From: Trypanosoma brucei
Taxonomy: Eukaryota
NCBI GenBank assembly: GCA_000002445.1
Contig: CP000067.1
Location: forward strand, 832,001 to 896,000
Reading direction: 5' to 3'
DNA: 64,000 nucleotides
Shown in pieces: positions 9,247 to 30,493 of the stretch. Numbering within the stretch: position 1 is the first letter of the stretch; every line of letters starts with the position of its first letter. The position numbers and the translations under genes were made by a program. The notes beneath the pieces are model-generated. The model saw nothing but the letters and a program-made list of their open reading frames with translations. It was not told the origin of the DNA and did not search any database.

Positions 9247-10079
9247 CGGGCTGTTGACTCCATCCTTATTCCCATCCCCACCCAAACGCGCACGATCACA
9301 ATTATTCGTATGAAATTCTCACAGGCAAAGCGTTCATTTCCGCCCACCTCCTCCGTTGAAAATTACCTTCCCACCCGAGCTTCAGTTGATGGCATTACCC
9401 TTCAACACACGCCTGCACTTGACGCCAACATTAACTTTATTACATGTAATCTCTTCTCCACACCATTAAATAGTAAATGTTAAGGAAATGCGCCTGGGAC
9501 AAATGCATATGATACTTTCATGCCTTTCGTTGGATCGCAACCCACTTTGACACTCAGTTGCGGCGTCGCCGAAGTGTTTCAAGAGGGTATTTTTTGTTCG
9601 CCGACTTCCTCTCGACCGTTCAAACTGACATGGGTTTCGGTCATTTCCCCTGTTTGCCGGATTCCGATGGATGTGAAGAAGTGCAATAAAGCGTTGCATT
9701 ATGGAGCAAGTGGAGAAATCACAGCGGTCTCTCAGTGTTGCTGAATTATTTCTGTTTCCCTCTCCCCGATCTAGGGCAACGGTGCAGTTCCAAAACAATA
9801 AAAAGGTCGGGACGCGAAAGTGGACAGAGAGTGCTCAAGGAACGCCATTGTGAGGTTTGACACACTTCACGTATGCGAATACCGGAATTCACACATGGCC
9901 CTCGACGGGCATCGGCTACACGGGCGCCATAGCGTTACGAATCCGTGGGGAGTCCAACTTTTTTGCTTCTGAAGCGCCGCATTCCTGTCACTTGAAATAG
10001 CAGTCCATCGTGAACTAAATGAGATCGTGCAAACACATTCCGGAAGCAACGGCCAGAAAAGGAACCTTACCGAGACCAC

Positions 10080-10800
10080 CTCCAAAACCATGAAAAAAAG
10101 GACATATTGCACACATTTGTTTTCCCCTTATTTTCCTTCCTGTCACTGTTCCTTTCCCAGCCCAGTTCCAGTTTCCCATGACAGCACGGGTCCAATACCT
10201 TCCTCTTTTATAATGAACAATGGGGCATTTGATGGAATGTTTGCAGCAGCACCGCAACACCCCGCCACACATTGCAGCCTCGTGAGGTGATGTTTGAACT
10301 CTGTTGGTATGGGGGTCATCCTCTCCCTGCCTTTCTGGTATTTTAGCATTGCTTTCTCAACCAACCCAATAAAAGAAAAAGCAAAGCAAGGCAAAGAGCA
10401 AAAAGAGACGAGCCGTCCACTGACTCACGTTTTAGTTGATGGGGATGTTACTCTCGATGTAATGAATAATGGATATGCTGCTTCATTAGTAACTAAAACA
10501 GCGACCCCTTTTCCTTTCATTCGTTTCCGTCCCAAATGTCACCACCTCAGGCCACACACACACGCACAATCTCAATCCCTCTTCCCCTTTCATCCGAACA
10601 TTAAAATTTCACGGCAGCAAAATTGAGGGAAACGGAGAAATGACGAAAACCTACGCCGATCGGGACTCGAACCCGAGACCTTCGCCGTGTTAAAGCGACG
10701 TCATAACCACCTAGACCATCAGCGCTTGCCCGCTCCGGCAATTTTTGTATCATTTCCTCAGTTCAATTGATTTAAACACGAAAACGACTGACGGTGGTGG
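10080..10800. repeat. Inverted repeat, left arm (721 bp): noncoding segment plus tRNA-Val plus the 3' 12 nt of tRNA-Leu
   Basis: By eye, this is the reverse complement of 29012-29733 at about 98% identity. The ORF-track 110-aa ORFs at 10294-10626 (+) and 29186-29518 (-) are identical. Boundaries were located by direct comparison. Confidence 0.85.
10652..10725 (-). tRNA. tRNA-Val(AAC)
   Basis: 74 nt. Acceptor stem GCGCTGA/TCGGCGT (two G-U pairs); anticodon arm TCGCT-TTAACAC-GGCGA; T-arm TCGGG-TTCGAGT-CCCGA; GG in the D-loop. A T4 run follows on the minus strand. An identical copy lies at 29087-29160. Confidence 0.9.
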
Positions 10801-10822
10801 GGTTCGAACCCACGCCCCTAGA

Positions 10823-10861
<39 letters not shown>

Positions 10862-10868
10862 CACCGCC
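10789..10868 (-). tRNA. tRNA-Leu(TAG), type II with long variable arm
   Basis: Acceptor stem GGCGGTG/CACCGTC; D-arm GCC-GAGTGGTCTAAG-GGC; anticodon arm CCAGA-TTTAGGC-TCTGG; T-arm GTGGG-TTCGAAC-CCCAC. A T4 run follows downstream. Confidence 0.85.
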
Positions 10869-10926
10869 ACCACCGCCGGTTTCGCGGGCGAATTTCTGTT
10901 ATAAACTTACTCCCGCAGTAAAAATA

Positions 10927-10999
10927 TGCGATCGGTGAGGCTCGAACTCACGACCTTGGGATTATGAAACCCACGCGCTGCCGACTGCGCCACGCTCGC
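10927..10999 (-). tRNA. tRNA-Met(CAT), elongator-type
   Basis: 73 nt with standard numbering. D-stem GCGC/GCGC; anticodon loop TTCATAA; T-arm GTGAG-TTCGAGC-CTCAC; G1:C72 and T54, so not initiator-like. A T5 run follows downstream. An identical copy lies at 28774-28846. Confidence 0.85.
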
Positions 11000-13900
11000 A
11001 GCAGCTTCCGTCACATTTCGGATTGCCTTTTAACGGCTGGAAATCAGTTTCCAACCAGCAGGCTCATTCTGTAAATTCGCGCTGGGAAGCTTACATCCGC
11101 TTCTTCTATGCGAACACAACAATATACTTTCAAAATAACTACTCACTGTGAAAGTATCATATTTTACTGTTTTTATGTCGTCCCACTGAAGGAGTTTGGT
11201 GTATACATGAAGCATCCGCCGCAACGACAGCTGAAATAACACCTTTTCTCCACGCGAACGCCATTGAATATGGGTTGCCTAGAGGACTGGACGGAACAAC
11301 GGGAAGTACGTGTACACGGCGTCTGGAGCTCGTAAAAAATTAAATGGAATAGTTATACTTGTATTTATTTCAACGGTTAAGAAGATTGATCGTTATGGTA
11401 AAAGTATGGAAAGAAGTAAAAATAAGGTAGCGTTGAATGAGGAGTCGTGAAGGGGATGAAAATGAAAGAATGCTCCAACTCGCAGACTTTATTCTCACTA
11501 ACTAGATCCGCTTTACCGTATATTTCAATGTAGTATAAGAGTGTTATTCTTCCGCGAGGTGAGTGTGAGATTTGTAAAGGTGAGCATCCCCTCACGCTGT
11601 TGGTACAGAGCCATCGGTGTCGGAAGCGGCTGCTGCCATATATCCGCGGAATGTGAATGACCTCCAGGAAACAGTAGAAGCCACCAGAAAGGAAGTAAAG
11701 TGAGATTTTCCCATGATAATCCTAGAATCAACGCTAGCCCTTGGTTTCTCACAAGTTTGTATCTTTTTTTTTCCTTTATCGTCTTGTTACGTTTTGCAAT
11801 TCACCCTTTTTTTTCGAGCCTCTCCTTAAACTTTTTTTTCAAGAACCTTTCTCGTTTCTTATTTAAATAATTATTAGAGTTTATATCCTGGATACCTTCA
11901 TGAAGTTCTTTTGCGTCCCTTTTTGAAACCTATGTGCATGGCACCGTTGTAATGTTTCACAAATCCTGTTGCATTCCATGCGATTGAGATTCATATCTTC
12001 CCTGGAGGCGTCAGAAATTGCAGAGTAATGGTGAGTTGAGTTTACCGTTAGGGGGAGGCCAAATGACTGTTCGCACCCTGTCATCAGGGAGACATGGCAG
12101 CTCACCGGCTGTTGGTTGTTGGGGTAACGGGGGAAGTGGAAACGATATTGGCTCCCTGATGTGGGAACCGATATCTTTGTTGTCCCTTGCACGCTCTTGC
12201 ATGTTCCCGTGGGCGTGTAGGGACAACTCCTGTTGTGGAGAAGACATCAGAGGCAACTGTAATTCACCTACTGGCGTATGGTAAGGGACTGTCTCTTCAA
12301 ATTTTTTGGGGGGAAAAAGGAAGGCTTCTTTTGCGTTTTGAAGGGGACATACATCCACGCGACGAAGAAGTGAAATGCAAAATGATGCCTGTATTTCCGG
12401 AACATTGATATAGCAAACCCTTCTAGGGGTTGACGAGTGTCAAAATCGGCAGAAAATAGCACAGGTAGAATGCAAGGCTCGTAACAAAATGGAAACTGGA
12501 AGAGTGTCAGTTAAACCGAAACTCGCTCAGGAGTAGTGGAACACACTCGTGTCAATATTTTTCTGTGGCCAAATCTGGAATCACCTGACCACTACTGGAA
12601 GGTTGCATGGAAGAGATAGTTTGAAGGTTTGCAGAAAGGCAATGGAGTAGCAATTCGACGAAGGAGGAAACTTAAATACCCCACATATCACGCGGAATGC
12701 TGCCTTGGAATAGGATTCCGCAGAATATGAGGGATAAATGTTATTGCCGCCTGAAGGAATAATAGTCACTTATAGGGATAGGGGTTTACGATGGGAATTA
12801 GGCAGTTCCTTCAGCTGTTGGAAGTTTTGAAGCAAATAGACAAGACAGCAAAAACAATGAACTTCCTGAGGAATCAGAGCAGGCAATGCAAAAGGCACTG
12901 ACCGAAGCGCAGAGTAGAACACGATACAAATGTAGATGGTGCGATTATTAGCGTGTTCATGTGTCGGGGCCCATTCTGCACACAAGGAACAAACACTCGG
13001 TGGAAGTTGGAATGAAAAAAGATACAAATGATAAAGCATCTCCGGCATCAAAGACAGCTCCAAAGACCCTCCAACGCTCGCAGTACAAAATGCGTGCAAC
13101 AAAGTGACCTCACTGAACTCATGCAGCGGAAAGGCGAATGCAAAATAGGAAAAAAAGCACAACACTGTAAAAAGTGGGTACTACTCATCTTCCCTAAAAC
13201 CGTCACAACACCCCTCCCCAGGAAGCGCTGCGTAGAGAAAGCGGTCGAAAATGCGGCAAACAGATGGTTGCCGTTTCGCATGCAACTGGCACGTTTCCAT
13301 GCAAGCTATTTCAACCAAAGGATTTGGAGCTAAACACAGAGGAGCGTCAACAGACTCAAGATAACTGTCAAAGGAATTCACACTGAAACGACCATGGGTT
13401 GGTTCAACACAAAAAAACACGCTCTTAATTAACTCTATAAGATTCTTTCGCATTCCACAGTTTCTCACGTCTCCACTGACTTGTTTCCTCTCTACGAAAA
13501 AGCAGCTCTACTTGTTTGCTACACGTATCTAAAGGGATACTGACACTTTTTTGAAACGTGTTCATCGCCTCATATCGCTTATCTTCAGACTGTTCCCACA
13601 AAGGAGCTGAAGAGCTTAATAAAAATAATAAAAATATGTTCGCATTCATACCATCAAACCCCAATAACGGAAAACATTGAAGAAAAGAATTTCCCTGCAG
13701 TTACTGATATAACATGAAGACCAACAAAAGAACTTACTCAACACTCCATAGATGGTATGTAATTAACATGCACCCAGAAACATACGCAGCCGATAGATAA
13801 TAGAAGGATCGAAATAAGTCCTCAAAATATATGCGATACAGCCTCCACTTTTTTTTTGACCTTCGCCTACGCACAAACCGCTATAAAATTGCTATGTTCC

Positions 13901-15179
13901 TTTTGAGTCGACAATTATTTTGCGTTTCTGTCAGCGCATATATCGATCTTTTCAAAAACTTTCAAACAATGCGTACAATCCTCCCCACCTAGGCAATTGC
14001 AACCAAATTTTACCAACCACCTTTACCACATATTTTGCCGAGAAAATACCCCGTGATTTGATTTTTCGTTAAATTTTTCGCCATGGAAAAGTGCATTTGT
14101 TGCTTTTCTTCGCTTCATTAATTTTACCACTTACTCTAGTAGTGTGTTTCAGGACCTCCAATAATTTGCTGCTATCGTTTATTTTGTTGGAGAATTTCTC
14201 TTCGCTAGATAAAACTTTACTGAAGGTTTTGAACGTTGTCAGTAAATCTGGCTTCTGCGGTGCACAAGCGCCGTATATTTATTTTTTTCATAAGTGCGTG
14301 CCTCAGAAATAGCACTTCCCTGGCTCAGTAATGGGACAACCACGCCCCTGTTGACTTTATTTTGAAGCTTTCTCTTACTACATCTCGGAGTAAGTTTCTT
14401 TCCCTCATGAGCTCATAAATTTCCACCACTGGTTCTTTCTCTTTTCTAGAGATGTCATTTTCACACGTCAAACCAGCTGTGATGACCTCAGATGTTCTAT
14501 TTTTTATTTTCAGTGTGGTCCCAAGGTCTCTTTCATGTAGTGAAGTTCCGGAATTGGTCTTTTATGGCTTTCATCTGTCTTTGTTCACTTCTTTTTTCAC
14601 TTTGTTTCTGCGAGTCACATATTCCAACCGTTGTCACTATGTTTTGTTAGCTCCTTGGTAGTATGTCTGTTCTGACCCACAGTAATCTGGCACTTCTTTC
14701 TTTCCATCCGTTCCATAGTGTTCATATAACCTCACCTTCGTCGTCGCAGACAAAACCATCATTTGCTCTTGATCACCTTCTTTGTACACGTAACGTTCTA
14801 TTTTCTCCCCCTTGCCATACACACGCAAATACGCAAAAATGGAGAGAAAAGTATACATCCTTGCAACCTGAACTCCCTTGTTTACCTATAACTTCAACAT
14901 AGTTCGGTCTTTTCTCGATCCACTGTATCCCCTTCTGAAAAAAAGACAAAGCATATGAGCGTACATGCTTCGTATCAAACGAAAACTCAAACTGAAGCAC
15001 GTGTGTGACCATGCATGCTCTCGCGTGATATTTAGTATCGTATACCTGTGCTACTAAGAAAATATAAAGATGCGCGCAAAGAGGAAAGGGGGTGTCTATG
15101 ACAATAGTGGCTCTGAAGATGAAGCTTAAAAAGGGAAGTAACACAAACGAGTGGAAACTGTATTCACACATTCTTGATA

Positions 15180-16109
15180 TTATACTGAAGACGCCATAAG
15201 ACTACTGAAAAGGGAATGGAGTTTGTCAGAGAGGGTGTCAATTCTGGAAGCACGTTCCGACAGCTTAGAAAGCATGACTTCAATTTCTGAGGATACATCA
15301 TTTATTTCTTTGAGGTGAGGAAGAAAAGACTTGAAAACTCTTGTTACGTTCACATCTTCTACCAGGCCGTATCTATTCGCAAGGACCTTGTCCCTACCCA
15401 AATTACCCCTTATTCCCCTGTGTTTGAAGATGTGTCCATGGGAAGTGGACACCGAATCAACTCTGTCAGCCAGTTTTCTTCCTCCAGTGCTATACGCCGT
15501 TCCATTGTGAAACCTCAAGTCGACGTGCTCGTCCCTGCTGCTGTCAAATTCGGTAATTATATCAGAAACGTCCCTTCCAGTTAAGGTTCCATCACACGTG
15601 ACTTGTATCCCATTATTCCTACAAAAGCCATGTGAATTATTCAGCATGCGCACTGCCTCCGATCCAACTCTGTACATCTCCTCCATTGTGGCTGCATACC
15701 TGGTTCCGGTTCTTACAACATCCATTGCCTTTTCCTCCATATAAGAAACACTAAGATCGAATTTCTTCCGTAAGTAGCTTTCACCTTCGAAAACACTCTC
15801 CATCTCATTTAATATTTCCTTCATTTTATCACCCTTCTCTTTTTTCATAAATGGTTTTCCGCGTAGGAATAATTCTCTCCACGCTGCATTCTGTTCTTCT
15901 GCCGAATACCTCTTCTCATACACCTCCTCTGCATGTACTCTAGTTCTTAAAAGTAGATCCTCCGTCACATTAATCATCCAATTAAGCTTCTTCACGACAC
16001 AGTCAATTTGTTTAAGGGTTGAGAGTGCTTCTTTATCAGTCTCCTGCATTCGAGAATCCACCAAGACAACAGAAATTGCAGCAAACACTACCGGAACTAT
16101 CCTCACCAT
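15180..16109 (-). CDS. Array gene B1: secreted-type ~310-aa protein of an unrecognised family, with signal peptide and no GPI-type C-terminus
   Basis: Start chosen at the internal Met (MVRIVPVVFAAISVVLV) of the 15180-16187 ORF, matching the signal-peptide starts of its paralogs. Conserved blocks are IDCVVKKLNWMINVTEDLLLRTRVHAEEVY and DKMKEILNEMESVFEGESYLRKKF. Confidence 0.7.
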   Translation of the reverse strand: MVRIVPVVFAAISVVLVDSRMQETDKEALSTLKQIDCVVKKLNWMINVTEDLLLRTRVHAEEVYEKRYSAEEQNAAWRELFLRGKPFMKKEKGDKMKEILNEMESVFEGESYLRKKFDLSVSYMEEKAMDVVRTGTRYAATMEEMYRVGSEAVRMLNNSHGFCRNNGIQVTCDGTLTGRDVSDIITEFDSSRDEHVDLRFHNGTAYSTGGRKLADRVDSVSTSHGHIFKHRGIRGNLGRDKVLANRYGLVEDVNVTRVFKSFLPHLKEINDVSSEIEVMLSKLSERASRIDTLSDKLHSLFSSLMASSV

Positions 16110-16254
16110 CCCAAGCACTTGTACCACGTAAAAGAGAACTACAGAAAAATACACGTTCTTTAAGAGAAGCACCACACACACACACACGCTAGTAGCGTGA
16201 AACTTACAATTGTAAAAATATTTTAGAAAATTACTAACATTTCCCCACCTATTT

Positions 16255-17439
16255 CTAAAACGGTACCAAGACGCACAAAAGCAACGCTACCCATGGTAGA
16301 GTTTGTTGAAACTTCACCACACCATTATTATCTTCACTATAATTATCATTCCATGGAGAATCCTTCGCGTTTCCTAATGTTTCCGTAAGTTCATTGGTCC
16401 TTTCCTTCATTTTAACAATACTTCTGACTTTTTCTTCAAGTTCCAGAAGCAACCTATCGAGTACAGCTCGTTGAGCTGTGATGGAGGTGTTTCCTGCAGA
16501 TATCTTTATGACGCTGGCACTCAGCAGATCGATTAGTTCCTGAAATTCTTCTCCAATAGAACTGAAGTTTGCCATAAGTCTGTCATTCTGTGTGTAAAAG
16601 AGGCCACCAGAAAGTTCATTGATAAAGGGCTTCTTCCCTTTTGTGTACGGCTGGTATGTCGTCGTGATATAGCATCCATAAACAGCATCGGCACCTTGAT
16701 CTCCTGCATTTCCCATAGTCAAACTGAGTTCTGTATTAAGAGGATTTTCATACTCAGCAAGGCCACCCTCGCTGTGCTGTGGTGGCTCAACTGTGCAGTC
16801 TCTGGGAACACTGCCGCGTTTACCACCTCTTATGCAATCGCCAGTTGCCCCTCCATCCACCACAAGACAGCAATTTCCATATCCTAGTGCTGCATGGTGG
16901 AAAACTTCCACCATATCCTTAATCCAGTACGCGTACGAGTCAGACATATTCAGAAGGTTCCACGATGGCAACCTCATAGCCCGCAGTGAAGTATTCATGT
17001 TTTTAATGCTTTTTTTTAACTCCAATAGTGACTCTTCCGTTTCAATCAACAACTTTGCCACCTCATTCACTCTTTTACCTCCATCTGGAATTACTTCTTT
17101 CAGAACATCCACTAAAATTGTTTTTGTTCGAACACGTGCACTGTAGTGAGCTACAATTTTTTCACAGTCTTCCACTATTTTCTCCCCGAATTTCATATTA
17201 TGTGTCACATTGTTCCTCAGTTCCCTCAGCTTCCTAACTATACTACAGATGGCATTTGCATCACTTTGTGTCAGTGCCTTGCCCTTACCCTTTTCATCAC
17301 CCTCCGGTCCACTGTTAGCACATGCCACCACCAGAAAACTAAACATAATCACCACTCCTCCAACTGAAATCATATTATCACCTTCATACACAAAACAAGC
17401 AAAAAGGAGCTTTGAAAGCATGTGCTTCTTATTCCCCAT
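16255..17439 (-). CDS. Array gene A1: ~395-aa predicted GPI-anchored surface glycoprotein of an unrecognised family
   Basis: N-terminal hydrophobic signal (an alternative start is Met23, MISVGGVVIMFSFLVVACA). Many NxS/T sites. Motif CCLVVDGGATGDC. Hydrophobic C-terminus LPWVALLLCVLVPF. The first ~135 codons are identical to A2 and A3. Confidence 0.75.
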   Translation of the reverse strand: MGNKKHMLSKLLFACFVYEGDNMISVGGVVIMFSFLVVACANSGPEGDEKGKGKALTQSDANAICSIVRKLRELRNNVTHNMKFGEKIVEDCEKIVAHYSARVRTKTILVDVLKEVIPDGGKRVNEVAKLLIETEESLLELKKSIKNMNTSLRAMRLPSWNLLNMSDSYAYWIKDMVEVFHHAALGYGNCCLVVDGGATGDCIRGGKRGSVPRDCTVEPPQHSEGGLAEYENPLNTELSLTMGNAGDQGADAVYGCYITTTYQPYTKGKKPFINELSGGLFYTQNDRLMANFSSIGEEFQELIDLLSASVIKISAGNTSITAQRAVLDRLLLELEEKVRSIVKMKERTNELTETLGNAKDSPWNDNYSEDNNGVVKFQQTLPWVALLLCVLVPF

Positions 17440-17728
17440 ATCATACTGTTATTCAAGTAAAGACAAATCTTCGCTGACACATTATCAAGGCACCCAAAAA
17501 CATGATATCGCAATGCGACCACACGTAGTCGGCCAGAAGCAGCAATAGCATATAAACACACATTCATATTTGCACATGCACATTCATTTCATGGTTATTG
17601 GACGGTTATTTTATGGTTATTTGCAAGAGGAGGGTGCAGTGAGAGTGTTAATACTGCTGACAGTTGTTGAGGCACAGGGTGTAAAAAGAGAAGGTGAGCG
17701 AAAGAGGCGTGTGTTCTCTTTTTCATTT

Positions 17729-18658
17729 TTAAGCTGTGGATATGGTGATGCTGCTGAAGATTGACTGGAGTTCCTTTTCGAGAGCGTCGATTCTGGAAGT
17801 TTGTTCCAACAGCTTGGAAGGCGTGGCTTCAATTTCGGAGATGATGTCGTTGATTTCTCTTAGAGGTGTGACAAACAACTTGAGAAGCTCTGATGCATTC
17901 ACCTTTTCTACCGAGCGAAGTTTATTCGTTTGGACGTTGTCTTTACCCAAATTGTTCCTTATTCCTCTGTGCTTGAGGACGAGCCCAAGGGAGGTGGACG
18001 CCGTATTGACTTTATCGGCCAATTTGTTTCCCCCATGGCTCTGAAACCCTCCACCGGTAAATGACAAGTCCATATAATCAGCGTCGCTGTCGAAATCGCC
18101 AACAATACCGGAAATATCTTTCCCAACAAAAGTTGTCCCGCACTTGACGTATGCACCATTATCCCCACAATAGCCATGCGACTTATTTACAATACATACT
18201 GCCTCTAATCCAACTCTGTACATCTCCACCATTGTGGCTGCATACCTGGTTCCGGTTCTTACAACATCCATCACCTTTTCCTCCAGATAAGAAACATTAA
18301 GGTTAAATTTCTTCCGTAAGTAGCTTTCACCTTCGAAAACACTCTCCATCTCATTTAATATTTCCTTCATTTTATCACCCTTCTGTTTTTTCATAAATGG
18401 TTTTACGTACACGAATAATCGTTCCCAGGCTGCGTATCTTTCCTCCGCCGAATACCTCTTCTCATACACCTCCTCTGCATGCACTCTAGTTCTTAAAAGT
18501 AGATCCTCCGTCACATTAATCATCCAATTAAGTTTCTTCACGACACAGTCAATTTGGTTAAGAGTTGTCAGTGACTCGTCGTTGTCCGCTTCTGGTGACA
18601 TGTTCTCTGCCAACACAACCCAAACTACAAAAAGCATCACTAGAAGTATCCTTATCAT
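17729..18658 (-). CDS. Array gene B2 (309 aa): signal peptide, no anchor signal
   Basis: MIRILLVMLFVVWVVLA signal. Conserved B-family blocks. C-terminus SIFSSITISTA is not hydrophobic. Confidence 0.75.
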   Translation of the reverse strand: MIRILLVMLFVVWVVLAENMSPEADNDESLTTLNQIDCVVKKLNWMINVTEDLLLRTRVHAEEVYEKRYSAEERYAAWERLFVYVKPFMKKQKGDKMKEILNEMESVFEGESYLRKKFNLNVSYLEEKVMDVVRTGTRYAATMVEMYRVGLEAVCIVNKSHGYCGDNGAYVKCGTTFVGKDISGIVGDFDSDADYMDLSFTGGGFQSHGGNKLADKVNTASTSLGLVLKHRGIRNNLGKDNVQTNKLRSVEKVNASELLKLFVTPLREINDIISEIEATPSKLLEQTSRIDALEKELQSIFSSITISTA

Positions 18659-18779
18659 CCTATAAACTTATTCCACACAAAATCGAACTACAGAAAATAA
18701 TGCCCCTTTCCGGAAAGAGACCACACCGCTAGTAACATGAAGCTGTTATTAAAAATATTTTATAAAATTACTCACTTTC

Positions 18780-21204: not shown

Positions 21205-21337
21205 TCCACACTCTTACTTCAGGAAAAACTAAGCCAGTTCGAAGAGCGTACCTTTTTTGGAAGGGCACATCGCTTACACGCTAGTAGTAATAAGCTGTCA
21301 ATTGCACAAATATTTTAGAAAATTACACACTTTCCAC

Positions 21338-22525
21338 CTATTTCCAAAATACAGAAAAGACGAAAAGAAGCAGAGCCACTTCTGATAGATTTGGTTTCTT
21401 GCTCATACCATCACTCTCATAACTCTCATTATCATACCAGGAAACATCTTCTATGCTTCCTAATCTTTTCGTAACATCCATGACTCTCTTTTTCCTTTTA
21501 AGGATATCTCCAACTTCTTCCTCAAACCTCAGTAACAAGCTGTGGAGTATAGTTCGTTGACCTGTGATAGATGTGTTCCACGTGAAAATGTCGCTGATAC
21601 TAGTGTTCAGTTGATCGATTAGTTCCTGAAATTCTTTTCCAACAGAACTGAAGTTGGCAACGACGTTGTTATTCTGTGTGTAAAAGAGTCCTCCTGAAAG
21701 TTCATTTATAAAGGATTTCTTTGTATTAAAGCCACCTGCGGTGCTTGTGATGTAGCAACCGTAACTATTTGGGGTTTTACCGTAGTTTCCTGAATTTCCC
21801 ATAGTCAAACTGAGTTCTGTATTAAGAGGATTTTCATACTCAGCAAGGCTACCCTCGCTGTGCTGTGGTGGCTCAACTATGCAGTCTCTGGGAACTATTC
21901 CTCGTTTTCGGTCAAAGGGACAATCTTCCATTGACCCTCCATCTACCACAAGACAGCAACTCCCGGGGCTAAACGCTGCATAGTGAAAAAAATCCACCAT
22001 ATCCTTAATCCAGTACGCATATGAGTCCGATATATTTACAAGGTTCCACGATGGCAACCTCATAGCCCGCAGTGAAGCATTCATGCTCGTAATTGTCTTC
22101 CCTAATCCATCCCTCAGTTCCCCCATCTTCTCCAGGATTCTTTCCATCCCACTGAAACTTGACTTTTCTTCTGCCATTACTTTCTCCAACACGCTCACCA
22201 GCATTTTCTTAGACATAACTTTCGCGCCGTAGTAACTTTTCACGTCTTCAGCCTCGTCCACTATTTTCTCCCCGAATTTCATATTATGTGTCACATTGTT
22301 CCTCAGCTCCCTCAGCTTCCTAACTATACTACAGATGGCATTTGCATCACTTTGTGTCAGTGCCTTGCCCTTACCCTTTTCATCACCCTCCGGTCCACTG
22401 TTAGCACATGCCACCACCAGAAAACTAAACATAATCACCACTCCTCCAACTGAAATCATATTATCACCTTCATACACAAAACAAGCAAAAAGGAGCTTTG
22501 AAAGCATGTGCTTCTTATTCCCCAT
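21338..22525 (-). CDS. Array gene A3 (395 aa): predicted GPI-anchored surface glycoprotein
   Basis: Same N-terminus as A1 and A2. Motif CCLVVDGGSMEDC. C-terminus LSEVALLLFVFSVFWK. Confidence 0.75.
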   Translation of the reverse strand: MGNKKHMLSKLLFACFVYEGDNMISVGGVVIMFSFLVVACANSGPEGDEKGKGKALTQSDANAICSIVRKLRELRNNVTHNMKFGEKIVDEAEDVKSYYGAKVMSKKMLVSVLEKVMAEEKSSFSGMERILEKMGELRDGLGKTITSMNASLRAMRLPSWNLVNISDSYAYWIKDMVDFFHYAAFSPGSCCLVVDGGSMEDCPFDRKRGIVPRDCIVEPPQHSEGSLAEYENPLNTELSLTMGNSGNYGKTPNSYGCYITSTAGGFNTKKSFINELSGGLFYTQNNNVVANFSSVGKEFQELIDQLNTSISDIFTWNTSITGQRTILHSLLLRFEEEVGDILKRKKRVMDVTKRLGSIEDVSWYDNESYESDGMSKKPNLSEVALLLFVFSVFWK

Positions 22526-22813
22526 ATCATACTGTTATTCAAGTAAAGACAAATCTTCGCTGACACATTATCAAGGCACCCAAAAACATGATATCGCAAT
22601 GCGACCACACGTAGTCGGCCAGAAGCAGCAATAGCATATAAACACACATTCATATTTGCACATGCATATTCATTTCATGGTTATTGGACGGTTATTTTAT
22701 GGTTATTTGCAAGAGGAGGGTGCAGTGAAAGTGTTAATACTGCTGATGCTTGTAATTAACATTGGCTCAAAAGGAATTATGTTCACGCATTTTTTTTATT
22801 ATACTGAAGACGC

Positions 22814-23740
22814 TCAAAGGCTGTTAAAGAGGGATTCAAGTTTCTTTTCGAGAATAGAAAACTTGTGAACACGTTCCGACAGCTTGGAAGGTGTGGCTTC
22901 AACTTCGGAGGTGAGATTACCGACTTCCCTTAGATGTGTGACAAACAACTTGAGAAGCTTCGCTGCACTCACGTGTTCTACCAAGTCGCGTTCATCCATG
23001 AGAACTCTGGCCTTTCCCAAACTATTACCTATTCCTCTGTGCTTGATGACACGTCCAAACGTGGTCGATACATTATGAACTCTATCAGCCAGCTTGTTTC
23101 CCCCTTTACTCCAGTGACCTCCGTTCTCAAACCTTAGATCTATATTTTCTTCAGTGCCGCTACCAAATTCAGCAACGATAATAGATAAATTTCCCCCAGA
23201 GAAGGCTCTCTCGCATGTAACATTGGCTTCATAAATTTCACAACTTTTTGGTACTTCTTTTCCAGAACGCACAGCTTCCAATCCAACTCTGTACATCTCC
23301 TCCATTGTGGCTGAATACCTGATACCGACTCTTACAATAGTCATCATTTTTTTTTCAAAGTAAGAAACATTAAGGTTAAAGTTTTTCTGCAAGTAGCTTT
23401 CAGTTTCAACGATTCTCTCCATCTCATTTAATATTTCCTTCATTTTATCACCCTTCTGTTTTTTCATAAATGGTTTTACGTACACGAATAATCGTTCCCA
23501 GGCTGCGTATCTTTCCTCCAGCAAATACTTCTTTTTATATACCTTTTCTGCATGCACTCTAGCTCTTAAAAGTAGATCCTCCGTCACATTAATCATCCAA
23601 TTAAGCTTCTTCACGACACAGTCAATTTGCTTAAGAGTTGAGAGAGATTCATCTCCGTGTGTTGTTTCCGCTATAACCCCCCAAAAAACAACTAGAACAA
23701 CTAAAGTGACAGCAAACACCACCTGAATCATCCTCATCAT
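22814..23740 (-). CDS. Array gene B4 (308 aa): signal peptide, no anchor signal
   Basis: MMRMIQVVFAVTLVVLVVFWGVIA signal. Conserved B blocks with a more divergent C-terminal half. Confidence 0.7.
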   Translation of the reverse strand: MMRMIQVVFAVTLVVLVVFWGVIAETTHGDESLSTLKQIDCVVKKLNWMINVTEDLLLRARVHAEKVYKKKYLLEERYAAWERLFVYVKPFMKKQKGDKMKEILNEMERIVETESYLQKNFNLNVSYFEKKMMTIVRVGIRYSATMEEMYRVGLEAVRSGKEVPKSCEIYEANVTCERAFSGGNLSIIVAEFGSGTEENIDLRFENGGHWSKGGNKLADRVHNVSTTFGRVIKHRGIGNSLGKARVLMDERDLVEHVSAAKLLKLFVTHLREVGNLTSEVEATPSKLSERVHKFSILEKKLESLFNSL

Positions 23741-23870
23741 ATGTACCTATTCCACGAAAAGCGAATCACAGGAAAACGTGTAGCCTTTAGTAAGGGTACA
23801 ACACACGCGGTAGTAGAACATAATTGTCGTCTGTATAAATATTTTAGATCACTTACTTCTCCACATACTT

Positions 23871-25019
23871 TTAGAAGAATACCAGGAAGAATAGAAACAG
23901 ACTCACCCCTCGGAGGGTTGGTTGCGTCCCCATACCATCGCTATTCCCACTCTCGTTACCAAACCATGGAATGTTCTTCGTGCTACCTAATGCTTCCGTA
24001 ATTGCTTTGTTCTTTTCTTTCTCAAGGACATGTCTGATTTCTTTCTTCAGCTTAAGTAGCAAACCATCGAGTACAGCTCGTTGTCTTGTAATTGATGTGT
24101 TCCACGCGGAAAAATTGTTTGTGACTCTTCTTAGCGGATCGATTAGCTCCTGAAATTCCTTTCCAACAAAAGTGAAGTTGGCCATAAGTCTGTTATTCTG
24201 TGTGTAAAAGAGGCCACCAGAAAGTTCATAAATGAGAGATTTTTTCCCCCTGCTGTAAGTGTCATTTGTTGTTGTGATGAAGCAGCCACATAGCGGGTAT
24301 TCGCCTTCGTCCCCTGCATTTCCCATCGTTAAAGTGAGTCCTTCATCAAGAGGGTTTTTGTACTCAGCAAGGCCACCCTCGCTGCGCTGTGGCGGGTAAA
24401 TAGTGCAATCCGTGGGGACACTGCCGCGTTTACCACCTCTTATGCAATCTCCCGTTGCCCCTCCATCCACCACAAGACAACAATTCCCGCTTCCGAATGC
24501 TGTCTGGGCAAAGAGTTCTACCATATCTTTCACCCAGTACGCATACGAGTCAGACATATTTGTGAGGTTCCACATTTGCACACTCATGCACCCGAGTGAA
24601 GCGTTCACATTCGTAATACTTCTTTTCAACACCTGGATCGGCTCCTCCATATCACTCAGCAGCTTTCCCATCACGCTCAACTTTTCTCCTTCTTCAGGAA
24701 TTAGTTTTCCCAAAACCTTCACTAACATTTTCTTTGCTTCAACACGTGTGCTGTAGTAAGTAGCAACGTTTTCGCCATTGTCCACGATTTTTTCACCCAA
24801 TTTCATATTACGCGTCACGTTATTTGCCAACTCCCTCAACTGTTTGACCACATTGCAAATGGCATCTGCATCACTTTGCGTCAGCGCCTTGCCCTTACCC
24901 TCGATGTCACCCTCCGCTTGACCGTAAGCACATACCACCACTAAACAAGCCACAACCATTCCCCTTTTGAGTGGCATCATATTATCCCCTCCTTCCAGAA
25001 ACGCAAGAAAGGCAAACAA
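23871..25019 (-). CDS. Array gene A4 (382 aa): divergent A-type predicted GPI-anchored surface glycoprotein
   Basis: Different signal peptide (MMPLKRGMVVACLVVVCAYG), but it shares ALTQSDADAICNVVKQLRELANNVT, CCLVVDGGATGDCIRGGKRGSVP and the ELSGGLFYTQNN blocks. C-terminus LRGVSLFLFFLVFF. Confidence 0.7.
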   Translation of the reverse strand: MFAFLAFLEGGDNMMPLKRGMVVACLVVVCAYGQAEGDIEGKGKALTQSDADAICNVVKQLRELANNVTRNMKLGEKIVDNGENVATYYSTRVEAKKMLVKVLGKLIPEEGEKLSVMGKLLSDMEEPIQVLKRSITNVNASLGCMSVQMWNLTNMSDSYAYWVKDMVELFAQTAFGSGNCCLVVDGGATGDCIRGGKRGSVPTDCTIYPPQRSEGGLAEYKNPLDEGLTLTMGNAGDEGEYPLCGCFITTTNDTYSRGKKSLIYELSGGLFYTQNNRLMANFTFVGKEFQELIDPLRRVTNNFSAWNTSITRQRAVLDGLLLKLKKEIRHVLEKEKNKAITEALGSTKNIPWFGNESGNSDGMGTQPTLRGVSLFLFFLVFF

Positions 25020-25092
25020 ATTGTGGATCCCTACGTGCGTATTCAGTCGGAGAACAGATCTTGATTACAATAAGTAGAACATTTGGGCTATA

Positions 25093-26325
25093 TTACGAAA
25101 ACACCAACAAAACAAAAATGCTCACCATTAAATCGAAATGGGCATCACCCTCCGTGTCAACATCCAAATTTTCTGCCTTGCCCCAGATATCTATGTTTCC
25201 TCCAAGTTTGTACTCAAGAAACATTTCCTCAGCGTCATGCTGTAAATCTTCCAACTCGTAAATATGGGAGTTTGCTTCACTTTCATACTTCTCCATGTCT
25301 TCCATGTTCTTTGTGGCATTGGTGAGACGATTGTGCCACGGTATGCCGCCATGGGATAAGGTGTGTTTGTAATTCACACACGTTGTTCCGGGTCTGTGGC
25401 CATCACATAGAAATGTTTCATTACTCGTATCATTCACGTGGCCAAATACGCCTTCCACCTGAAACTTGTCCTGCCTCATGTTAACAGATTTATCAAACTC
25501 CTCCAATGCAGCCTTTAACAGCTTTGAGTTGGATGCAATGTGCCTGTACACGCATCCGCGCTTTACCACTTGCCAAGCATCTTTGAGTGTCATTGATGAA
25601 TTAACCTCACATTTCTCTTCGGCCAAGGCGCACTCATTGCTCATGCCCGTCCACTTATTTTTTTCTGGTCGCCTCAAGTAGGTCCTGCAGGGCGAACTAT
25701 GCCCGTTGTAATAGTAGCTGCTGCTGTTCGCCTCGTCTTTCGCCTCTCCCACACATACACAAAAAAAGTCGTTAACAAGTGTTTTTCCAGTTTCATTACC
25801 GTTGCTTCCACAGCTTTCCAGAGCAGATTCATTGCTGTTGAACAGTAAACTTTTATTAGTTTCCATAATATCGTCAATGGGTCTGTTGGTCTTATGTGCC
25901 TCATCCACTAAATCACCATACACAGCTTTCATCATGCTCTCCTCAGCCTTACTGCTCTCCCGCATCGCCCTCTTTCTATTCCTGTCAATCTCTCCCTTCA
26001 CCGCTTTTGCTCTTTTGTATAGTTTCTCAATCCCTTCACGCGCCTTTTGGCTCACAGAAGTTTCTTTTCCGTTCGCTCTCGCCTCACTCACCATTACCTC
26101 GAACCTCTTCATAATCTCATCTTCCTTCTCACGGTTTCTAAATTCCGGCCTTGGCACCTTTGCTTGAGTGATCCTGTAAATCTTACAAAGGATCTCAAAC
26201 TCTCCGGTGTTGTGTTGGTAATCAGTAATGTTGAAAACACCCTTCTGTTGACCCTGACTTCCTCTTATTGATCCCCATAAAAGAGCAACCAACAATAGCA
26301 CCCCAGCGCAACCACGTCTCTTCAT
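25093..26325 (-). CDS. Gene C1 (410 aa): predicted GPI-anchored, Cys-containing, charged helical surface protein; paralog of C2
   Basis: Signal MKRRGCAGVLLLVALLWGSIRG. Motifs LVNDFFCVCVGE and CVNYKHTL are shared with C2. Multiple NxS/T sites. Hydrophobic C-terminus LMVSIFVLLVFS. Confidence 0.7.
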   Translation of the reverse strand: MKRRGCAGVLLLVALLWGSIRGSQGQQKGVFNITDYQHNTGEFEILCKIYRITQAKVPRPEFRNREKEDEIMKRFEVMVSEARANGKETSVSQKAREGIEKLYKRAKAVKGEIDRNRKRAMRESSKAEESMMKAVYGDLVDEAHKTNRPIDDIMETNKSLLFNSNESALESCGSNGNETGKTLVNDFFCVCVGEAKDEANSSSYYYNGHSSPCRTYLRRPEKNKWTGMSNECALAEEKCEVNSSMTLKDAWQVVKRGCVYRHIASNSKLLKAALEEFDKSVNMRQDKFQVEGVFGHVNDTSNETFLCDGHRPGTTCVNYKHTLSHGGIPWHNRLTNATKNMEDMEKYESEANSHIYELEDLQHDAEEMFLEYKLGGNIDIWGKAENLDVDTEGDAHFDLMVSIFVLLVFS

Positions 26326-26435
26326 AATTTCCTATTACAACCAAATGGGAAGCAAATATCAACAACATGCCACGCAGCAGCAGTCATTTAGGAAAATGCG
26401 GAAGCTGGGAAAAGCTAAAAATATAACACGGAAAG

Positions 26436-27767
26436 TTAAGCGACAAAGGCAGTCAGCGCCATCATTGCTAAAACAGTCAAAGATATTGAAAAGCCGGCCC
26501 CATCCTCTTCCACCTCGTTCACTTCACTCTCCATCATTAAGTGTTCCAAATTCAAGTTAATCTTTGCTGCTGCACTTTTCATATTCTCCGCTAATTTCCA
26601 CAGCCTTCCAAGCAAAACCTTTGCCTCCTTATTGTGCCTTTCCATTTCCACCAGGTACTTCTCCGCATCCAGCAACCTCAGCTGCCACTCAATTCCCTTC
26701 TGCGTCAGAAGTCTATACGCATAATTCACGCACATTTGGTCATTCTTCCCCGTGCATATGTTTTCGCTGCGGTCAAAAACACCCGTATGTATTTTTTTTG
26801 CTCTCCCAAACACGTAGGTCCGAAATCCCTCCGATTCTTTCATGTTCATGATTATATTCTCCCTCTGCCTTCCAAGAAGCTTATTGAACTCCCTCACTGC
26901 ATCTTGGATTTTTTCTGGCGTTATCAATTTCAAATTTTCATTTTTTGGACAGGCTTCATCCTTTATCTTAAACCAGCCGGGGCCAAAAGCCACATCACTT
27001 CCATCATACGACACATTTTTCCACAGTTTCTTTCTACCCGGCCCCTTGATACTTTTGTGACAAACGGTCTCATTATTCTCTTCTCCAACGCACAAGCAAA
27101 AAAAGTCCCCCACGAGCGAACGCCCAGCCATGGCATCCTCAGTCGAGGGATGATACCCAGCTCCGCACGTTTCCTCTGCGGAGTTTCCTATTAAAGTGTC
27201 TCCGGTGTGCACCGCAAACTTTTCAAACTCCTCCTTCTCCATCAGCCTCCCAGCATTCGCCCCATAAACGACTTGCGCCATTCTTTCGAGTGCAAATTTC
27301 CTTGACACATTCGCCAGGCGCCGTTCCTCTCTTATTCCACTCACGAGTATGGTTGCCTTTTCCGCTAGTTTTATTAACTTCTCATGTGTTACCCTCCACC
27401 GAATAATATCATTTGCACGATGCATACTCATCTTAGCGGCCCCACTATTGTTAACTGTTCCTTTCCTCCTTTCCATAGCTTCTTTATACAAGGAATCCTT
27501 CACGTATGTCGCTTTCACAAACATCTGTAGCCTGTCGATGATACTCGTTAGATTCGCAGGCTCTTCCATTATTTTCTCTGGTTCCCCCTCCGCCAACCTC
27601 AATATCTCACACATTTGGTTGAACTCTTTTTCATTCACTAACTTTGAATCCTCTCCACACACCAAGTGGAAGGCACCAAAGGCCGTTAACAAGAATGTCA
27701 CTATGATTTCCTTCATTATCAAAGCCCTGCTACAAACAAAAAGAAAGTAAAGGCACCAACAAGACAA
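26436..27767 (-). CDS. Gene C2 (443 aa): predicted GPI-anchored surface protein; paralog of C1
   Basis: The probable start is the internal MKEIIVTFLLTAFGAFHLVCG signal at 27716. Motifs LVGDFFCLCVGE and CVNYAYRL. Hydrophobic C-terminus SLTVLAMMALTAFVA. Confidence 0.7.
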   Translation of the reverse strand: MSCWCLYFLFVCSRALIMKEIIVTFLLTAFGAFHLVCGEDSKLVNEKEFNQMCEILRLAEGEPEKIMEEPANLTSIIDRLQMFVKATYVKDSLYKEAMERRKGTVNNSGAAKMSMHRANDIIRWRVTHEKLIKLAEKATILVSGIREERRLANVSRKFALERMAQVVYGANAGRLMEKEEFEKFAVHTGDTLIGNSAEETCGAGYHPSTEDAMAGRSLVGDFFCLCVGEENNETVCHKSIKGPGRKKLWKNVSYDGSDVAFGPGWFKIKDEACPKNENLKLITPEKIQDAVREFNKLLGRQRENIIMNMKESEGFRTYVFGRAKKIHTGVFDRSENICTGKNDQMCVNYAYRLLTQKGIEWQLRLLDAEKYLVEMERHNKEAKVLLGRLWKLAENMKSAAAKINLNLEHLMMESEVNEVEEDGAGFSISLTVLAMMALTAFVA

Positions 27768-28605
27768 TCCTCCAACCAGAAGATGCTCCTAATCGCAGAT
27801 AAAAGAGATCACTTTTGTAACGCAAGAAAAGCATCCAAAGCCACCAACCGAGCATCCCAACCGTCATACAAACGTATTTCCGAATGGCCAAACCACCGTA
27901 ATTTTAAAAATCTCTCACACATTCACGATTGAACACTATACGTGATAAAAAAAGCGTGCTCTGATTTAAGCCTTCCCAATGCATTGCTGAGCCCACGCAC
28001 GGCCCCTCTCAACCTTAACGCGCAGTTTTTCACGGAGTGAAACCAACCAAAAAAGCAAGCAGGTCACAGCTTTTTTAATGTCTTCACGCGCAGGCAGCTT
28101 ATATATAATTACTGCGGCAAAGAGAGGAACAGAGTAATGGAAAGTATTTAAAGGATCACAGACAAAAAGAAGCAGAACAAACCTGAACGTTATTCCGTGG
28201 TTACTGCCTTGTGGGGAAAGAGGGCCGCGGCATGGGAAAGCGCTTTAATTCAGGTCTCGGCGCCACACGGAACTGCAGAGGCTCACGCGCCAATGAGTGG
28301 CGACAAACCGACTGACAGCGATATCACACTTCTGAACTTCCTTTTCCTTTGTGGTGAGTGCCCTGAGGCTCATCCTCCGTTTTTCTCCTGAAGCTTCCCC
28401 GAATCAATTTTATCCTCCTTAACAGCGATGAAGCAGCGGAGTTATGCGCAATAGACAACCGCTGCGGGAGCGGCGAAACATTGAAATGTCCTCGACAGAG
28501 GATACTGGCACGGCAGCTGCAACGGTCGGCAAGTTCCAAAACTCATCGTCTTGGACCGTTCTCTCGAGTAACGTGCCCGTCGCCGCATCAAGCACGTTGA
28601 CCTCT

Positions 28606-28612
28606 AAAAAAA
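28606..28612 (-). terminator. RNA polymerase III T7 terminator for tRNA-Glu
   Basis: An A7 run on the plus strand immediately 3' of the minus-strand tRNA. Confidence 0.6.
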
Positions 28613-28614
28613 GT

Positions 28615-28686
28615 TTCCGGTGCCGGGGATCGAACCCGGGTCTAGCGGGTGAGAGCCGCTTGTTCTAGCCACTATACCACACCGGA
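28615..28686 (-). tRNA. tRNA-Glu(CTC)
   Basis: 72 nt. Acceptor stem TCCGGTG/CACCGGA; anticodon arm AGCGG-CTCTCAC-CCGCT; T-arm CCGGG-TTCGATC-CCCGG. A T7 run follows on the minus strand (28606-28612). Confidence 0.9.
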
Positions 28687-28773
28687 GATGCATCTCGTCA
28701 AATCTACACTTACGTTCTAAACCATAAGTTGTGATGCAGACGTTCATAATTTACTATCGAGCGGCCCCGCACC

Positions 28774-28846
28774 GCGAGCGTGGCGCAGTCGGCAGCGCGT
28801 GGGTTTCATAATCCCAAGGTCGTGAGTTCGAGCCTCACCGATCGCA
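28774..28846 (+). tRNA. tRNA-Met(CAT), elongator-type, second copy
   Basis: Sequence identical to the 10927-10999 copy, in opposite orientation. Divergent from tRNA-Glu, 87 bp away. T6 run at 28848-28853. Confidence 0.85.
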
Positions 28847-28847
28847 C

Positions 28848-28853
28848 TTTTTT
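28848..28853 (+). terminator. RNA polymerase III T6 terminator for tRNA-Met
   Basis: A T6 run begins 2 nt after the discriminator base. Confidence 0.6.
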
Positions 28854-28889
28854 GATTTCCACCTGCGAGTTTTTCAGCAGGAGAAAACC

Positions 28890-28970
28890 CGTCGACAGCA
28901 GGGTTCGAACCTGCGCGCGAGATCGCATTTGATTTCAAGTCAAACCCCGTAACCACTTGGGTATGTCGAC
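28890..28970 (-). tRNA. tRNA-Ser(TGA), type II
   Basis: 81 nt. Acceptor stem GTCGACA/TGTCGAC; anticodon arm TTTGA-CTTGAAA-TCAAA, which pairs perfectly; 13-nt variable arm; T-arm GCAGG-TTCGAAC-CCTGC. A T4 run follows downstream. Confidence 0.8.
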
Positions 28971-29011
28971 AACGGTTTACCCGACTATTTCAAACTAATA
29001 AAAAAACAGAT

Positions 29012-29733
29012 CCACCACCGTCAGTCGTTTTCGTGTTTAAATCAATTGAACTGAGGAAATGATACAAAAATTGCCGGAGCGGGCAAGCGCTGATGGTCTA
29101 GGTGGTTATGACGTCGCTTTAACACGGCGAAGGTCTCGGGTTCGAGTCCCGATCGGCGTAGGTTTTCGTCATTTCTCCGTTTCCCTCAATTTTGCTGCCG
29201 TGAAATTTTAATGTTCGGATGAAAGGGGAAGAGGGATTGAGATTGTGCGTGTGTGTGTGGCCTGAGGTGGTGACATTTGGGACGGAAACGAATGAAAGGA
29301 AAAGGGGTCGCTGTTTTAGTTACTAATGAAGCAGCATATCCATTATTCATTACATCGAGAGTAACATCCCCATCAACTAAAACGTGAGTCAGTGGACGGC
29401 TCGTCTCTTTTTGCTCTTTGCCTTGCTTTGCTTTTTCTTTTATTGGGTTGGTTGAGAAAGCAATGCTAAAATACCAGAAAGGCAGGGAGAGGATGACCCC
29501 CATACCAACAGAGTTCAAACATCACCTCACGAGGCTGCAATGTGTGGCGGGGTGTTGCGGTGCTGCTGCAAACATTCCATCAAATGCCCCACTGGTCATT
29601 ATAAAAGAGGAAGGTATTGGACCCGTGCTGTCATGGGAAACTGGAACTGGGCTGGGAAAGGAACAGTGACAGGAGGAAAAATAAGGGAAAACAAATGTGT
29701 GCAATATGTCCTTTTTTTTCATGGTTTTGGAGA
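29012..29733. repeat. Inverted repeat, right arm (722 bp), containing tRNA-Val and a 12-nt relic of the tRNA-Leu 3' end
   Basis: CCACCACCGTCA (T-stem plus acceptor 3' strand of tRNA-Leu) is retained at 29012-29023, but the rest of the gene is absent. Homology then continues through tRNA-Val to 29733. Confidence 0.85.
29087..29160 (+). tRNA. tRNA-Val(AAC), second copy inside the inverted repeat
   Basis: Identical to the 10652-10725 copy. A T4 run follows immediately. Confidence 0.9.
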
Positions 29734-30493
29734 AGAAGAGTGTTTGTGATAATACTGGAACCGTTGCACCACACCAAAGGGACACCGGCAGCAATATTAC
29801 ATGCTACGAAGGCTTTGCACACGCCTTGCGCTGTTCTAAACGCTACGCGCGCCCTTGACTTCAGGGAAGGGAATGGAAGGGGAAAATGAAGAAACGATCT
29901 TCCCAAAGTCAATTAAGCGTTACGCCCTCGGTCGCATCCATGAGCCTTTCACTCCAATTGCCAACAACAACGGCTAACAACATCCTCATTACGACATTGT
30001 ATTGCTTTGCCTTTTAGGGGAGAGAGTTGATTTTCTTCCCGCGTGCGCGAATAATGCACATCCGCGCGGAGGCATCTTTACCGTTCCAAAAGCAAAAAAA
30101 AAAGATGAGTAAAAGAGGAGACGAAAAGAATAGAAGCAGAAAAGTGAAGTTGGGGTGTGAAAAGGTGCTATGAACAAACTTCATCCACTTCAGCTGGCGC
30201 AGCGTGAAAAAATTTACATTCACCCCACGTGACTTCTCACTTTCTGTTGGCCAAATTATTGCATCCGGTTAGAAAGAAACCAGGTGTATCGCACACACGC
30301 GCTCGCACAAGAAACACGCAATCACCAACACGCGGCTACGCACACGTCACTCACGAAGAGAGCATCAGCTATTCAAAAAAAAAATAATAATAACAATAAT
30401 AATTAAATGGAGGATACGAACTTGAAGTCCACCGCCAGATCCCATCCTTTTAGTACCCAACCACACACACGGATTCACAAGCACACACTCTCC

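Follow-up and report, generated by a model that had tools for sequence, protein, structure and literature searches.

A surface-gene island within a tRNA cluster at a convergent strand-switch region of Trypanosoma brucei chromosome 4

A 64,000-nucleotide (nt) window of Trypanosoma brucei brucei TREU927 chromosome 4 (GenBank contig CP000067.1, positions 832,001 to 896,000) contains a 21.2-kb interval, 9247-30493 in window coordinates, bounded by the stop codons of two conserved genes that encode a UBC6-like ubiquitin-conjugating enzyme E2 and a mitochondrial FtsH/AFG3-type metalloprotease. The interval is very probably a Trypanozoon-specific surface-gene island that has colonized a convergent strand-switch region and evolves by birth and death. 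The corresponding junctions of T. theileri and Leishmania donovani hold transfer RNA (tRNA) genes only, the two gene families of its tandem pairs were found in Trypanozoon only, and the number of these pairs differs among T. brucei strains.

The interval carries 10 protein genes, all on the minus strand, and seven tRNA genes in two clusters identified with ARAGORN and Rfam. Eight of the protein genes form four tandem pairs, designated S and L, and the other two are VSG_B genes (V1 and V2). E2 is the final gene of a plus-strand polycistron, and the island lies downstream of FtsH on the FtsH strand. Plus-strand genes stop at 9246 and all protein genes from 15180 onward are on the minus strand, which defines a convergent strand-switch region. 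The features are listed in order of position.

8584-9246, plus strand: UBC6-like ubiquitin-conjugating enzyme E2, left conserved flank (Pfam UQ_con, E = 2e-18; annotated as E2 in TREU927 and DAL972)
10078-10800, no strand: left arm of an inverted repeat (680 nt at 99% in the repeat search; the alignment extends to ~720 nt)
10652-10725, 10788-10869 and 10926-11000, all minus strand: E2-side tRNA-Val(AAC), tRNA-Leu(TAG) and tRNA-Met(CAT) (ARAGORN; Rfam, 55-61 bits)
11001-15179, no strand: 4.2-kb non-coding spacer, a convergent termination zone downstream of the last array gene, with only short overlapping open reading frames (ORFs)
15180-25019, minus strand: four tandem S/L pairs, period 2524-2555 nt (Tb927.4.3200-.3270, as inferred from consecutive numbering)
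15180-16187, 17729-18658, 20260-21204 and 22814-23740, minus strand: S genes (signal-peptide-like N-terminus, no hydrophobic tail)
16255-17439, 18780-19970, 21338-22525 and 23871-25019, minus strand: L genes, "ESAG11-related" (hydrophobic C-terminal tail)
25093-26325, minus strand: V1, ESAG2-like VSG_B gene, putatively Tb927.4.3280 (Pfam VSG_B, E = 5.8e-27, 95.3 bits)
26436-27716, minus strand: V2, VSG_B gene of glycosylphosphatidylinositol (GPI) type, 426 amino acids, putatively Tb927.4.3290 (Pfam VSG_B, E = 4.5e-36, 125.2 bits)
28615-28686 (minus), 28774-28847 (plus), 28889-28971 (minus) and 29087-29160 (plus): FtsH-side tRNA-Glu(CTC), tRNA-Met(CAT), tRNA-Ser(TGA) and tRNA-Val(AAC) (ARAGORN; Rfam)
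29012-29735, no strand: right arm of the inverted repeat, containing tRNA-Val and, at its inner edge, a 13-nt remnant of a tRNA-Leu 3' end
30494-32653, minus strand: mitochondrial FtsH/AFG3-type metalloprotease, right conserved flank (Pfam AAA and Peptidase_M41; orthologues across trypanosomatids)

The left flank contains genes for GPAT, a lipase-like protein, an FHA protein and E2, and the right flank contains FtsH, SET, UPRT, EF-hand, CARME, myosin and a kinase. Intergenic spacers within 15180-27767 are just 67-352 nt long with weak pyrimidine tracts, and every S ORF starts 121-145 nt past an L stop codon. The 4.2-kb spacer had no decayed copies of island genes when searched by tblastn with the island proteins, and no conservation in the loci of other species. 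Neither the ORF list nor the Pfam matches for the interval include an integrase, a transposase or a reverse transcriptase. There is no rRNA in the window, where the Rfam matches are the seven tRNAs only.

The junction was traced through FtsH and E2 orthologues to contigs of other trypanosomatids, and was complete among the outgroups in T. theileri and L. donovani. The gene orders, written from FtsH with the strand of each tRNA, are as follows.

T. theileri: FtsH(+), Val- Met- Glu+ Met+ Ser- Leu+, E2(-); 3,677 nt, with no protein gene between FtsH and E2
L. donovani: FtsH, Val- Ile+ Met+ Leu- Ser+, a convergent lipase-like gene, GPAT; ~2 kb
T. vivax: FtsH, Val- Ser+, contig end
T. brucei (FtsH orientation): Val- Ser+ Met- Glu+, island, Met+ Leu+ Val+, E2(-)

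A 17.6-kb block (11001-28614) in T. brucei thus parts tRNA-Glu from a tRNA-Met, two genes that are separated by 117 nt in T. theileri and 81 nt in T. cruzi. Island proteins gave no tblastn match to the T. theileri, T. cruzi, T. vivax, T. grayi, T. rangeli or Leishmania loci. The original prediction had described a lineage-specific insertion or expansion containing only secreted or GPI-type genes, tRNAs and repeats between conserved housekeeping flanks, and had proposed a synteny comparison. The gene content, the conservation of the flanks and the absence of the island from the T. theileri and L. donovani FtsH junctions all bear this description out. Its idea of a tRNA-marked boundary needs revision: tRNAs do stand at the island edges, but the boundary is not a single tRNA and the island sits within an ancestral tRNA cluster.

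The T. cruzi locus is arranged differently. FtsH and E2 are on separate contigs, which in one assembly measure 520 kb and 72 kb, respectively, and the six-tRNA cluster is intact and adjoins E2. GP63 genes lie beyond the cluster and downstream of FtsH, in the FtsH direction, and a reverse-transcriptase fragment is located past the tRNA cluster on the E2 side. This GP63-bearing break is at another point and involves another gene family; therefore, the FtsH/E2 junction was broken independently in T. cruzi. Downstream of E2, at positions 15810-19165 of the T. cruzi locus, three overlapping ORFs of >1000 amino acids in different frames and on both strands indicate that a long stretch of low-complexity or repeated sequence separates the reverse-transcriptase fragment from GP63. 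The tRNA-Glu between the inverted pair of tRNA-Met genes has opposite orientations in T. theileri (locus 14166-14724) and T. cruzi (locus 11518-11897), a pattern that suggests the tRNA-Glu of the ancestral cluster was flipped by a small inversion through the inverted Met copies. T. theileri also has an extra tRNA-Met (locus 16962-17034) between E2 and the FHA gene that is 99% complementary to the Met sequence at 14610-14695.

The S proteins are 308-335 and the L proteins 382-396 amino acids long. On inspection by eye, the translations of all 10 island proteins begin with a hydrophobic segment, and those of L, V1 and V2 also end in one. Paralogues within the S/L array are 52-78% identical in amino acid sequence, and ratios of nonsynonymous to synonymous substitution (dN/dS) range from 0.21 to 0.59 at dS of 0.3-1.2. 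By this measure, S and L are both real coding genes, old paralogues held under purifying selection. The ratios weigh against the idea (Jensen 2009) that such "hypothetical" ORFs are mere 3' untranslated regions. A block of ~450 nt that comprises the S-to-L spacer and the first ~100 codons of L (approximate positions 17130-17580, 19660-20110 and 22215-22665) is shared at 99-100% identity by three units, against 50-85% over the rest of their sequence. The near-identity of this block indicates either local gene conversion or a strongly constrained element.

Neither family could be placed outside Trypanozoon. A search of 1.84 billion representative sequences with S returned two matches, both from Trypanozoon, and no relative from any other group; S has no detectable domain, even in a permissive Pfam scan. 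Six array-type proteins of the T. brucei group, two of which were labeled "ESAG11-related", were the only matches to L1, and no ESAG11-named protein was among them; L has no Pfam match. For L, "ESAG11-related" is thus the source annotation only, and the unconfirmed similarity to true ESAG11 would be remote. Comparison of the S and L profiles with PDB sequences gave coiled-coil noise only. Homology between S and L, as in a pair of the ESAG6/ESAG7 type, was considered and is unsupported (hhalign profile-profile probability 1.6%, E = 0.031). AlphaFold models were unusable for both L (mean confidence, pLDDT, of 37.9 from a 6-sequence alignment) and S (pLDDT of 39.6 from a single sequence).

V1 and V2 both score above the VSG_B (PF13206) gathering cut-off of 25 bits. 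The database name of V1 is ESAG or ESAG2 protein, putative. In DAL972, the V1 sequence (locus 6130-7363) is broken into ORFs of 223 and 183 amino acids and is not annotated, although it has ~98.8% nucleotide identity to TREU927 over most of the gene; DAL972 V1 is likely to be a pseudogene. The 426-amino acid V2 product is on record in TREU927, DAL972 and T. equiperdum, and Tb927.4.3290 is on a list of predicted GPI proteins (Savage 2012, PMC3378594).

The adjacency of V1 and the array raises a possible, though unlikely, alternative origin: that the block was transposed here from a telomeric bloodstream expression site, with V1-L copying the ESAG2-ESAG11(-ESAG1) order and the pair then amplified in place. 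V1 is followed by L4 on one strand at a distance of 73-112 nt, and expression sites have the conserved order ...ESAG3, ESAG2, ESAG11, ESAG1 (Hertz-Fowler 2008, PMC2567434). A pair of ESAG6/7 genes at a chromosome 7 strand-switch region has been read as a secondary transposition from an expression site (Jackson 2013, PMC3605285). However, the remote relationship of L to ESAG11, for which the L search yielded only "ESAG11-related" array members, and the failure of S to match any Pfam family argue against this origin, and Jackson 2013 (PMC3605285) holds that ESAG sister clades are chromosome-internal genes, which would imply movement from core to expression site. The V1-then-L order suggests a segmental link with expression sites in either direction.

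The island was compared among three assemblies of the T. brucei group. TREU927, DAL972 and T. b. equiperdum agree in the order FtsH, four tRNAs, V2, V1 and L/S pairs, all in identical orientation, and the DAL972 island has the same position and orientation as that of TREU927. The pair number is 4 in TREU927 and 2 in DAL972, and T. b. equiperdum has 3 S genes, 2 L genes and one L fragment together with V2 and V1. TREU927 and DAL972 agree at 99-100% identity in the flanking genes (99.5% over the flanks as a whole), at 93-98% inward of each stop codon and at 58-79% in the array. The sequence 11001-12836 is 88-96% identical to DAL972 and the remainder of the 4.2-kb spacer is diverged. TREU927 S/L copies have 67-78% nucleotide identity to the DAL972 copies and at most 78% to those of T. 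b. equiperdum, whereas DAL972 and T. b. equiperdum copies are 97-100% identical to each other. One T. b. equiperdum S copy is a chimera of both DAL972 S types.

This array has been described before. Carnes 2015 (PMC4288722) reports the pair Tb927.4.3200 (hypothetical) and Tb927.4.3210 (ESAG11-related), present four times as Tb927.4.3200-.3270, and notes that the array is missing or disrupted in T. evansi and unannotated in Lister 427. The same study raises a possible inversion here in T. evansi, with an artefact not excluded. Jackson 2010 (PMC2854126) lists zero shared isoforms for this array in Table 2. Jensen 2009 described the array, which lacks the chromatin of RNA polymerase II (Pol II) start sites, and found a modest mRNA signal for the cluster.

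An inverted repeat brackets the entire tRNA-plus-island complex. Each arm (~720 nt) consists of tRNA-Val and ~570 nt on the outer side of tRNA-Val, and a second inverted pair of 80 nt corresponds to the two tRNA-Met genes. The repeat is likewise present in DAL972 (720 nt, 98%). Arm identity is 99.2% within TREU927 and 98.1% within DAL972, and falls to 95.4-96.1% between genomes; the TREU927 left arm is 95.8-95.9% identical to either DAL972 arm. Because the arms are more alike within than between genomes, they have been homogenized by concerted evolution. A tRNA-Val directly after FtsH, on the minus strand in FtsH orientation, is common to Leishmania, T. theileri and T. vivax, which makes the FtsH-side copy ancestral by position and the E2-side copy derived. 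The ends of the repeat are hard to reconcile with this polarity: the left-arm end falls 13 nt inside tRNA-Leu (10788-10800) and the corresponding sequence of the right arm (29012-29024) is a remnant with no tRNA-Leu gene, which is poorly compatible with the FtsH-side arm as the ancestral copy. Both arms also contain identical 110-amino acid ORFs (10294-10626, plus strand; 29186-29518, minus strand) along with overlapping ORFs of 83-90 amino acids; these are most likely by-products of the duplication and not genes.

The favored account starts from a trypanosomatid ancestor with a few clustered tRNA genes (Val, Met, Glu, Met, Ser, Leu) at the junction where the GPAT...E2 polycistron converges with the ...SET-FtsH polycistron. 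The island would have settled at this meeting point, with a ~17.6-kb block (V2, V1, four L/S pairs and the 4.2-kb spacer) entering between tRNA-Glu and the second tRNA-Met in T. brucei. Copy-number change, mosaic units and decayed copies are all seen; unequal crossing-over among the 2.5-kb units would be the source of the first and gene conversion of the second. Copies would diverge fast under purifying selection. The 720-nt inverted duplication (the FtsH 3' flank and tRNA-Val) came to bracket the complex, and recombination probably homogenizes the arms. We infer that transcription of the FtsH polycistron continues through the tRNA cluster and ends with the island genes, in agreement with the lack of start-site chromatin and the modest mRNA signal (Jensen 2009). 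Their expression would be low and bloodstream-biased. Polycistron ends may be tolerated as landing sites since insertion there spares housekeeping transcription, and the tRNA clusters and inverted repeats may render the site recombination-prone.

Several points count against this account. In the closest outgroups the sequence stops short of the whole junction (T. congolense FtsH, TCIL3000_4_2990, was traced to no contig, and in T. vivax only 1.8 kb follow FtsH), so the insertion is dated no more closely than to some time since T. brucei parted from the T. theileri/T. cruzi lineages. Between species the non-coding DNA is unalignable and the insertion point is set by tRNA order alone, and this order has itself been rearranged, with Ser moved and flipped. 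The divergence between strains would be explained as well by the retention of different members of a larger ancestral array as by rapid evolution. The mode of transcription is deduced from the literature and the layout.

A further proposal, which we consider improbable, is that the island is an invertible cassette in which a crossover between the 720-nt arms flips the whole 18-kb tRNA-plus-island segment. The idea draws on the concerted evolution of the arms, the possible T. evansi inversion (Carnes 2015) and the tRNA-Glu flip between T. cruzi and T. theileri. If true, a flip would take the surface genes from the end of the FtsH polycistron and place them at the end of that of E2. Given the symmetric convergent layout, both orientations would be transcribable, and strains or clones may differ in orientation and in expression of the array.

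Loss from an older island accounts for the data less well than Trypanozoon-specific insertion and is very unlikely. It would make the island ancestral to trypanosomes; T. theileri and Leishmania would each have lost it separately, and in T. cruzi other sequence would have taken its place. Draft contigs of T. vivax, T. grayi and T. rangeli end 0.3-2.1 kb past FtsH or E2, which hints at repetitive or hard-to-assemble sequence at their junctions too, and V2 reportedly has a T. congolense homologue (Savage 2012, PMC3378594). The E2 orthologue search returned none from T. congolense or T. vivax. Against an ancestral island, both complete outgroup junctions hold tRNAs only, no relative of S or L was detected beyond Trypanozoon, VSG_B is an African-trypanosome family, and several independent clean losses would be required.

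A slighter chance still is given to an assembly artefact from collapsed or misjoined repeats (the tRNAs, the 720-nt inverted repeat and the 2.5-kb units). Carnes 2015 (PMC4288722) warns that the flanking tRNA genes may cause an assembly artefact, and Jackson 2010 (PMC2854126) that an assembly can give a tandem array an arbitrary copy number. However, three independent assemblies share the order and orientation, the units are too diverged to collapse at 50-85% identity over most of their length, and the inverted repeat is found in TREU927 and DAL972 alike.

Base composition sets the island genes apart from the flanking genes. Mean coding GC is 0.430 in the island, 0.494 in the left flank and 0.519 in the right flank (Mann-Whitney p = 2e-5 for island versus flanks, with the island genes being paralogues and hence not independent), and GC at third codon positions (GC3) is 0.457 versus 0.499 (left) and 0.537 (right). 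The distinct composition that had been predicted therefore holds for the coding sequences. It does not extend to the interval as a whole: bulk GC of 9247-30493 is 0.436, barely different from the 0.448 of the left flank (0.492 in the right flank), and intergenic GC is alike on both sides of its borders (0.28-0.47 in the island, 0.34-0.48 outside). The right flank also has its own AT-rich stretch at 35-40 kb. The long pyrimidine and purine runs attributed to the island were not found; there are 0 homopurine or homopyrimidine runs of at least 20 nt in the interval and 31 in the flanks, which predict ~15 for a stretch as long as this one. A search for tandem microsatellites was also negative. In the right flank, the 2.1-kb gap between SET and UPRT (35235-37335) is very AT-rich (GC 0.34) and contains a single 158-amino acid plus-strand ORF (36108-36584) and a 39-nt purine run.

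GC at first and second codon positions (GC1 and GC2) falls as much as GC3, which points to amino-acid composition plus a modest codon effect as the source of the drop. The compositional contrast thus points to the amino-acid and codon make-up of surface-protein genes, and not to foreign DNA. Horizontal acquisition of foreign DNA is next to impossible: the lower coding GC (0.43 vs 0.49-0.52) and the tRNA genes at both ends are set against a trypanosome-specific gene content (VSG_B and Trypanozoon-only families), intergenic GC equal to that of the flanks, parallel falls in GC1, GC2 and GC3, a lack of integrase, transposase and reverse-transcriptase genes, and flanking repeats that are inverted and not direct. 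The likeness to bacterial tRNA-linked islands (lower GC, accessory surface genes and tRNA edges) is superficial, and this island differs from them in having no integrase, no direct repeats and native genes, in a eukaryote with polycistronic transcription.

Closer parallels exist within the trypanosomes. T. brucei-specific surface families occur in tandem at strand-switch regions (Jackson 2013, PMC3605285). The Fam1 and Fam4-7 arrays of that study resemble this island in consisting of tandem genes that adjoin a strand-switch region and encode hypothetical proteins (in the island, with putative signal peptides or GPI signals), in being absent from other species and in having unequal copy number in TREU927 and DAL972. 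The island differs from them in mixing three unrelated families (S, L and VSG_B) and in lying inside a tRNA cluster bracketed by a 720-nt inverted repeat. It shares with the ESAG2-ESAG11-ESAG1 block of expression sites an ESAG2-like VSG_B gene followed directly by an ESAG11-related gene on one strand, but it is core-chromosomal and not telomeric, its L/S pair is amplified fourfold, the similarity between L and ESAG11 is by annotation only, and S is not detectably ESAG1. Core "VSG/ESAG islands" (Jackson 2010, PMC2854126) are likewise dynamic, strain-variable clusters of VSG/ESAG-related genes in a collinear core; conserved islands of that kind are usually orthologous, whereas the array core here is 58-79% identical between strains. 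The T. cruzi GP63 break shares the FtsH/E2 junction and surface genes in the FtsH direction, plus a reverse-transcriptase fragment, but involves another family, an insertion between FtsH and tRNA-Val, and a break in synteny rather than a bounded island.

The array itself, its variation between strains and the strand-switch habit of such genes are already published (Jensen 2009, Jackson 2010, Jackson 2013, Carnes 2015). Three details are added here: where exactly the block entered the ancestral series of tRNAs, the inverted repeat on either side with the concerted evolution of its arms, and the independent GP63-bearing break in T. cruzi. The locus shows, in a cleanly delimited form, how lineage-specific surface genes are gained within the conserved core of African trypanosomes, at a polycistron end within a tRNA cluster that is probably prone to recombination. 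Few parts of the T. brucei core genome diverge as much between strains as this array (58-79% identity versus 99.5% in the flanks), which makes it a candidate for host-interaction differences between subspecies.

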